This document shows, piece after piece, positions 11,085-11,915 of a DNA stretch of 64,000 nt. The notes beneath the pieces are model-generated. The model did no database searches, was not told where the DNA came from, and was given only the letters and a program-made list of their open reading frames with translations. A program made the translations under genes and the position numbers. Numbering within the stretch: the stretch's first letter is position 1; each line of letters begins with the position of its first letter. The stretch lies in NCBI RefSeq assembly GCF_022846255.1, contig NZ_AP025682.1; one strand, 5' to 3'. This DNA is from Escherichia coli. GTDB lineage: Bacteria > Pseudomonadota > Gammaproteobacteria > Enterobacterales > Enterobacteriaceae.

Positions 11085-11915
11085 CTACGCGGAGCGAGAC
11101 GCTGTCGCCCCTGCACGTGGTGGCAGGGCAAATGCCACCAGCGCCGGGATGAGATAAATAAACCAGACGGCGACTTCGCTGACGCTCGGCGCTTCCTGAT
11201 AGCCAAAAATCCCTTCCATCAGCGTGCCAAACAGCGAGTGAGTTGAGAGCACCGCGCTCATATCGAAGGCGATTTCCTGAAAGTGGTTCCACAATCCGGC
11301 TTCATGAAATGCGCGAATGGCACCAGCCGCCAGCCCTGCGGCGACGAAGAGAATAAACAGGCTGGTCCATTTAAAAAATGCACCAAGATTGAGGCGAATA
11401 CCGCCCCAGTAGAGCAGGAAGCCAAGCACCACGGCTGTAGCAAGACCGAGCATTGCACCCAGCGGCGGCCAGATCCCGACATCTTGTTGAAATGCCGCCA
11501 GCAGGAAAAAGACCGACTCCAGCCCTTCCCTTGCAACGGCAAAAAAAACCATCATCACCAGCGCCCAGCCATGATGATTTCCACGCTGCAATGCGCTATC
11601 GACTGCCTGCTCCAGTTGTACTTTGACGTTGCGCGACACTTTGCGCATCCAGAAAACCATCCAGGTAAGGATCACCACGGCGATCACCGCCACGATACCT
11701 TCAAACAGTTCCTGTTCTTTTTGCGGAAATTCGCCGGTGGTTTCGTTAATGAAGATACCCAAGCCCAGGCACAACGCAGCGGCAAGCAACACGCCAATCC
11801 ACATCACACCAATCCATCGGCCTCGCTGGGTACGCTTAAGATAGCTGGCAATCAAACTGACAATCAGCGCGGCTTCAAGTCCTTCGCGCAACATAATGAG
11901 AAACGGAACAAACAT
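11085..11915 (-). CDS. efeU: Ferrous iron permease EfeU (FTR1 family), apparently intact
   Basis: Uninterrupted multi-TM ORF with REGLE motifs. Start placed at MFVPFLIMLREGLEA. No frameshift is visible. Confidence 0.9.
   Translation of the reverse strand: MFVPFLIMLREGLEAALIVSLIASYLKRTQRGRWIGVMWIGVLLAAALCLGLGIFINETTGEFPQKEQELFEGIVAVIAVVILTWMVFWMRKVSRNVKVQLEQAVDSALQRGNHHGWALVMMVFFAVAREGLESVFFLLAAFQQDVGIWPPLGAMLGLATAVVLGFLLYWGGIRLNLGAFFKWTSLFILFVAAGLAAGAIRAFHEAGLWNHFQEIAFDMSAVLSTHSLFGTLMEGIFGYQEAPSVSEVAVWFIYLIPALVAFALPPRAGATASRSA

Follow-up and report, generated by a model that had tools for sequence, protein, structure and literature searches.

The 64,000-nucleotide stretch of DNA analysed here (the window) belongs to an E. 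coli chromosome and carries csgDEFG, ycdZYX and ghrA, followed by tRNA-Ser and phoH, by efeBOU, putP and putA, and further by rutR, rutA-G, wrbA, agp, cbpAM, torDAC-torR-torT, an island and a lambdoid prophage. The genes efeU, efeO and efeB are all located on the minus strand and are separated by gaps of 57 and 5 nt (Table 1).

Table 1 Coordinates of the features identified at the efeUOB locus of the window
Feature	Coordinates	Strand	Description and basis
efeU CDS	11085..11915	minus	276 aa and TAG stop; FTR1-family inner-membrane iron permease, intact; ORF list and translation
First REGLE (RExxE) motif	11874..11888	minus	Residues 10-14, in the first hydrophobic segment; CGCGAAGGACTTGAA; motif search and hydropathy scan
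Second REGLE motif	11517..11531	minus	Residues 129-133; AGGGAAGGGCTGGAG; motif search
GG pair, CDS nt 106-107	11809..11810	minus	Both Gs present here, one lost in K-12; three-way DNA alignment
efeO	9900..11027	minus	375 aa; periplasmic cupredoxin and M75 (imelysin) protein, intact; Pfam Cupredoxin_1 and Peptidase_M75
efeB	8623..9894	minus	423 aa; DyP-type haem peroxidase/deferrochelatase, predicted to be Tat-exported, intact; NCBIfam TIGR01412, 614 bits
Putative Fur-box-like site	11975..11993	minus	CGTAATGATAATCGCTATC; begins 78 nt upstream of the efeU ATG; conserved with K-12 and ST2350
Sigma-70-like promoter candidate	12014..12043	minus	TTTACA, 18-nt spacer, TACATT; pattern match only
Intrinsic-terminator-like hairpin and T run	12052..12090	minus	Directly after putP; 13-bp stem with 8 GC pairs, then GTTTTTTCTC

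When the backbone of the window (positions 1-25000) was compared with 5426 complete E. coli genomes, the identity did not exceed 99.2-99.3%, although several of these genomes are collinear with it; the lineage of the strain seems to be poorly represented in the complete-genome collection. Over positions 1-9000, a one-base length difference from the closest genome was found in the spacer between ghrA and tRNA-Ser, at 5543, outside genes. From tRNA-Ser (5754-5841) to phoH (region 5754-8272), the window has a single DUF2726 gene (5933-6619, minus strand). In ST2350, pgaD directly follows phoH, and it is absent here; in the K-12 map, a pgaABCD-ycdT-ycdU block is located between phoH and tRNA-Ser, and this whole block is missing in the window. 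The O170:H18 strain CFIAFB20120266 has the same tRNA-Ser-phoH arrangement as the window.

Several further departures from other E. coli genomes were found on the other side of the efe genes. The gene for the periplasmic glucose-1-phosphatase, agp (minus strand, CDS 25948-27189), has an amber codon at position 21 (27127-27129, TAG versus CAG in EC190329), which coincides with the end of the signal peptide, and no further stop interrupts the 413-codon frame; this looks like either a nonsense pseudogene of recent origin or a sequencing error. The gene yccE (1257 bp in EC190329) is absent between agp and cbpA, and a spacer of about 530 bp is found instead (27190-27723). Homology to K-12 stops at 35312, 10 bp short of the would-be start of torS, and torS is not in the window. 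The island that replaces it (35313-43000) encodes an MFS transporter (35767-36960), an alpha/beta hydrolase (37138-38289), a LysR regulator (38445-39332) and a 592-aa protein (40218-41996) matching the PADLOC dCTPase model (dCTP-deaminase anti-phage defence) with an E-value of 5e-127. The lambdoid prophage (43100-64000), with genes for tail fibre, Lom, gpJ, tape measure, major capsid and portal proteins, shares 96-97% identity with prophages of many other E. coli strains. It adjoins the island, so that both are located together in the torS-torT spacer, which is presumably an HK022-type attachment site.

The efeU frame starts with an ATG at 11915, ends with a TAG at 11085-11087 and consists of 276 codons with no internal stop, and the RefSeq efeU CDS in collinear E. 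coli genomes has the same coordinates. The encoded protein matched Pfam FTR1 (PF03239) over residues 1-275 with an E-value of 1.8e-89 (300 bits; cut-off 25.3), and the match spans positions 1-283 of the 284 in the profile. It also scored above the cut-offs of NCBIfam TIGR00145 (351.7 versus 303.8) and of the EfeU equivalog NF041756 (331.2 bits versus 255). Since the Pfam E-value is this low and the NF041756 score lies above the cut-off, the family match is far beyond chance. Indeed, the initial annotation had described an FTR1-family permease encoded as a single ORF with its REGLE motifs, and both points agree with our analysis, to which we add the strand (minus) and the number of these motifs, two. 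A sequence search of EfeU against the PDB detected no solved relative.

Two other readings of the region were considered and rejected. An in-frame GTG at 11924, three codons 5' of the ATG, could have served as the start of efeU, but in every RefSeq annotation the gene begins with the ATG at 11915. An antisense ORF of 215 aa on the plus strand (11283-11930) had no Pfam match and was treated as a spurious by-product of the efeU frame. We also observed a run of eight Ts at 11541-11548, which arises by a synonymous C-to-T change in the usual T-C-T6 and is in frame here; such a run is a potential slippage or sequencing-error hotspot.

In a crude Kyte-Doolittle scan, EfeU displayed six clear hydrophobic segments (approximately residues 1-23, 38-56, 70-88, 146-170, 179-203 and 248-266); seven helices are expected from the literature for EfeU-type permeases. 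Around the second REGLE motif, the same scan showed a weaker hydrophobic peak that remained below the threshold.

In K-12 MG1655, efeU is annotated as the pseudogene b4490, and the initial annotation had set the allele of the window against it as free of the K-12 frameshift. We compared the window, MG1655 and the intact allele of strain ST2350 in a three-way DNA alignment of efeU. The K-12 gene lies at the same locus with the same neighbours and is about 99% identical over 831 columns, and it differs from the window in a handful of base substitutions and in its stop codon (TAA versus TAG). The sole length difference is one missing G at nt 106, and otherwise 830 of the 831 bases are collinear. 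The K-12 frame is shifted because one G of the GG pair is lost; translated from the ATG, it terminates at codon 37. The alignment with K-12 and with the intact alleles of ST2350 and O157:H7 revealed no internal frameshift or stop in the efeU of the window, in accordance with what had been claimed. According to passages in PMC2808357, PMC7549933 and PMC3852070, which cite Grosse 2006 and Cao 2007, the EfeU transporter of MG1655 is non-functional owing to this frameshift.

An open frame could in principle also result from a sequencing or assembly artefact that hides a real indel in a homopolymer, and efeU does contain the T8 run (nt 368-375) and a T6 run, which are error-prone on some platforms. 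However, no stop interrupts the frame, and the protein matches a widespread allele in every residue, so that an error would have to restore the frame exactly, and the site affected in K-12 is a GG pair and not a long run. We regard an artefact as extremely improbable.

The protein encoded in the window is identical in 276 of 276 residues to WP_000497942.1, which is the EfeU of O157:H7 PV15-279 and of ST2350. In an exact-sequence look-up, it carried the label EFEU_ECO57, and at least 1000 public contigs encode it. Cao et al. 2007 (Mol Microbiol 65:857) reportedly dealt with EfeUOB (YcdNOB) of E. coli O157:H7, and Grosse et al. 2006 (Mol Microbiol 62:120) reportedly with EfeU of E. coli Nissle 1917. 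At the DNA level, efeU of the window differs at 7 positions from ST2350 and at 11 positions from O157:H7, and every one of these differences is synonymous, which fits purifying selection on the permease. In the parts of PMC2808357, PMC7549933 and PMC3852070 that cite Grosse 2006 and Cao 2007, O157:H7, EAEC 042 and an ExPEC strain are described as having an intact or functional operon, and PMC7549933 and PMC3852070 cite Cao et al. 2007 for the report that the O157:H7 EfeU allele is functional. The frameshift of K-12 and the intact alleles elsewhere had already been published in 2006-2007.

Of 5426 complete E. coli genomes, 5417 have efeU. The deletion allele of K-12, followed with a 70-mer across the deletion at a match of at least 99%, occurs in at most 368 of 5382 complete genomes. 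Among the carriers listed, all 60 look like K-12-type laboratory strains, and many are named as such, including MG1655, C600, J53, DH5alpha, DH1, RR1 and NCM3722. Conversely, the 71-mer of the window at the deletion site was found exactly in 3602 genomes, and the other matches mostly extend over the full length and carry a base substitution, not the deletion. With the K-12 deletion as the lesion counted, intact efeU is therefore the default of E. coli (approximately 93% of complete genomes) and K-12 is the exception. It follows that there is nothing special about the present strain in this respect.

The partner genes are complete as well. EfeO scored 771 bits with the NCBIfam EfeO model PRK10378 and has an HRLE (HxxE) motif at residue 217. 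The best PDB matches of EfeB are 2Y4F and 3O72 (YcdB/EfeB), which are near-identical to it. Neither protein differs in length from its K-12 and O157:H7 counterparts, and each shows 4-6 substitutions. In EfeB, the twin-arginine motif is kept (S13-R14-R15-H16-L17-L18-K19, SRRxLLK), and the DyP catalytic residues D235, H329 and R347 are retained. Compared to O157:H7, the window shares the order and spacing of efeU-efeO-efeB, the flanking genes putP and phoH and the proximal 130 bp upstream; apart from the synonymous changes in efeU, it differs by four amino acid changes in EfeO and five in EfeB. With a probability of about 90%, we conclude that efeU of the window is the wild-type, uninterrupted E. 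coli gene and the first gene of an intact efeU-efeO-efeB operon.

An intact efeU might nevertheless belong to a silent or impaired system, if the EfeB variant were poorly exported or less active, or if a divergent, short spacer altered the promoter or its control by CpxR. Three EfeB substitutions (R16H, D245A and Q307L) are indeed missing from the four comparators K-12, O157:H7, ST2350 and O170:H18, and R16H affects the x position of the Tat motif, beside the twin arginines. However, the arginine pair and the three catalytic residues are in place, and the exact EfeB allele is found on at least 1000 public contigs, as is the exact EfeO allele. We therefore rejected the view that these EfeB substitutions are rare and damaging. 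The divergence of efeU, which is synonymous only, also argues for continued selection and against a silent system.

The other part of this explanation concerns the spacer between putP and efeU, which is hypervariable in E. coli. Its length is 219 bp in the window (11916-12134), compared to 542 bp in K-12, 665 bp in ST2350 and about 2.7 kb in O157:H7 PV15-279, where it includes an extra hypothetical ORF of 1344 bp, and it is divergent upstream of approximately -130. The approximately 130 bp directly 5' of the efeU ATG are conserved across K-12, ST2350 and O157:H7. This part contains the putative Fur-box-like site, which agrees with the Fur consensus in 15 of its 19 bp, a score reached by 5 of 2000 shuffles of the spacer. 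The terminator-like hairpin stands between putP and the promoter region of efeU. The same short spacer was matched over at least 80% of its length in 1205 of 5417 complete genomes, in some of them with 100% identity, which speaks against a silent system in the present strain. We also rejected the idea that the short spacer is a promoter-removing deletion, since both the Fur-like box and the proximal 130 bp are still present and 1205 genomes carry the same spacer. Taken together, an intact efeU in a silent or impaired system is very unlikely.

Some difference in regulation is a separate matter. Passages of PMC3852070 and PMC4746246, reviews that cite Cao 2007, describe efeUOB as controlled by CpxAR and hence as active at low pH, and the matches to the CpxR-type GTAAA-N5-GTAAA pattern near efeU were weak, with 1-2 mismatches. 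Because the spacer upstream of approximately -130 departs from the K-12 and O157 arrangement, regulation of efeUOB could differ: the 219-bp haplotype, which about 22% of complete E. coli genomes share, might conceivably alter efeUOB expression or its pH/Cpx response relative to O157:H7, but we consider this unlikely.

The proposal of the initial annotation that the strain probably has a functional EfeUOB system is supported as far as sequence allows. It is consistent with an EfeU identical to that of O157:H7, with full-length efeO and efeB, with the Tat motif and the residues D235, H329 and R347 of EfeB, and with the conserved proximal 130 bp and the Fur-like site. Expression, transport activity and an oxidase-permease mechanism would be expected from published work on identical or near-identical alleles.

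In yeast, Ftr1p and Fet3p form a high-affinity iron permease-oxidase pair. EfeU resembles Ftr1p in the full-length Pfam FTR1 match and in the two RExxE motifs, whereas the multicopper oxidase Fet3p is replaced in bacteria by EfeO, with its cupredoxin and M75 domains, and the haem peroxidase EfeB. In the proposed mechanism, Fe2+ would be captured in the periplasm, oxidised with the help of EfeO, as a periplasmic cupredoxin and M75 protein, and of EfeB, as a Tat-exported haem DyP peroxidase, and handed to EfeU. The latter would act as an inner-membrane FTR1-type permease in which, by analogy with yeast Ftr1p, the glutamates of the REGLE (RExxE) motifs may line the iron path. According to the literature, the operon would be repressed by Fur-Fe2+ when iron is plentiful.

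The status of EfeU would matter little if the main role of the operon were the extraction of iron from haem by EfeB as a deferrochelatase. This is very doubtful, as passages of PMC3852070 and PMC7549933 describe Fe2+ uptake at low pH that depends on EfeUOB in strains whose efeU is intact, and the purely synonymous divergence of efeU shows that the permease itself is under selection. Moreover, Fe2+ uptake and a role in haem utilisation are not mutually exclusive.

To summarize, K-12 is a poor reference for efeU. Beyond annotation, the result obtained for the present strain matters little: it confirms the presence of the usual and complete operon, predicted to serve ferrous-iron uptake at low pH in E. 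coli.
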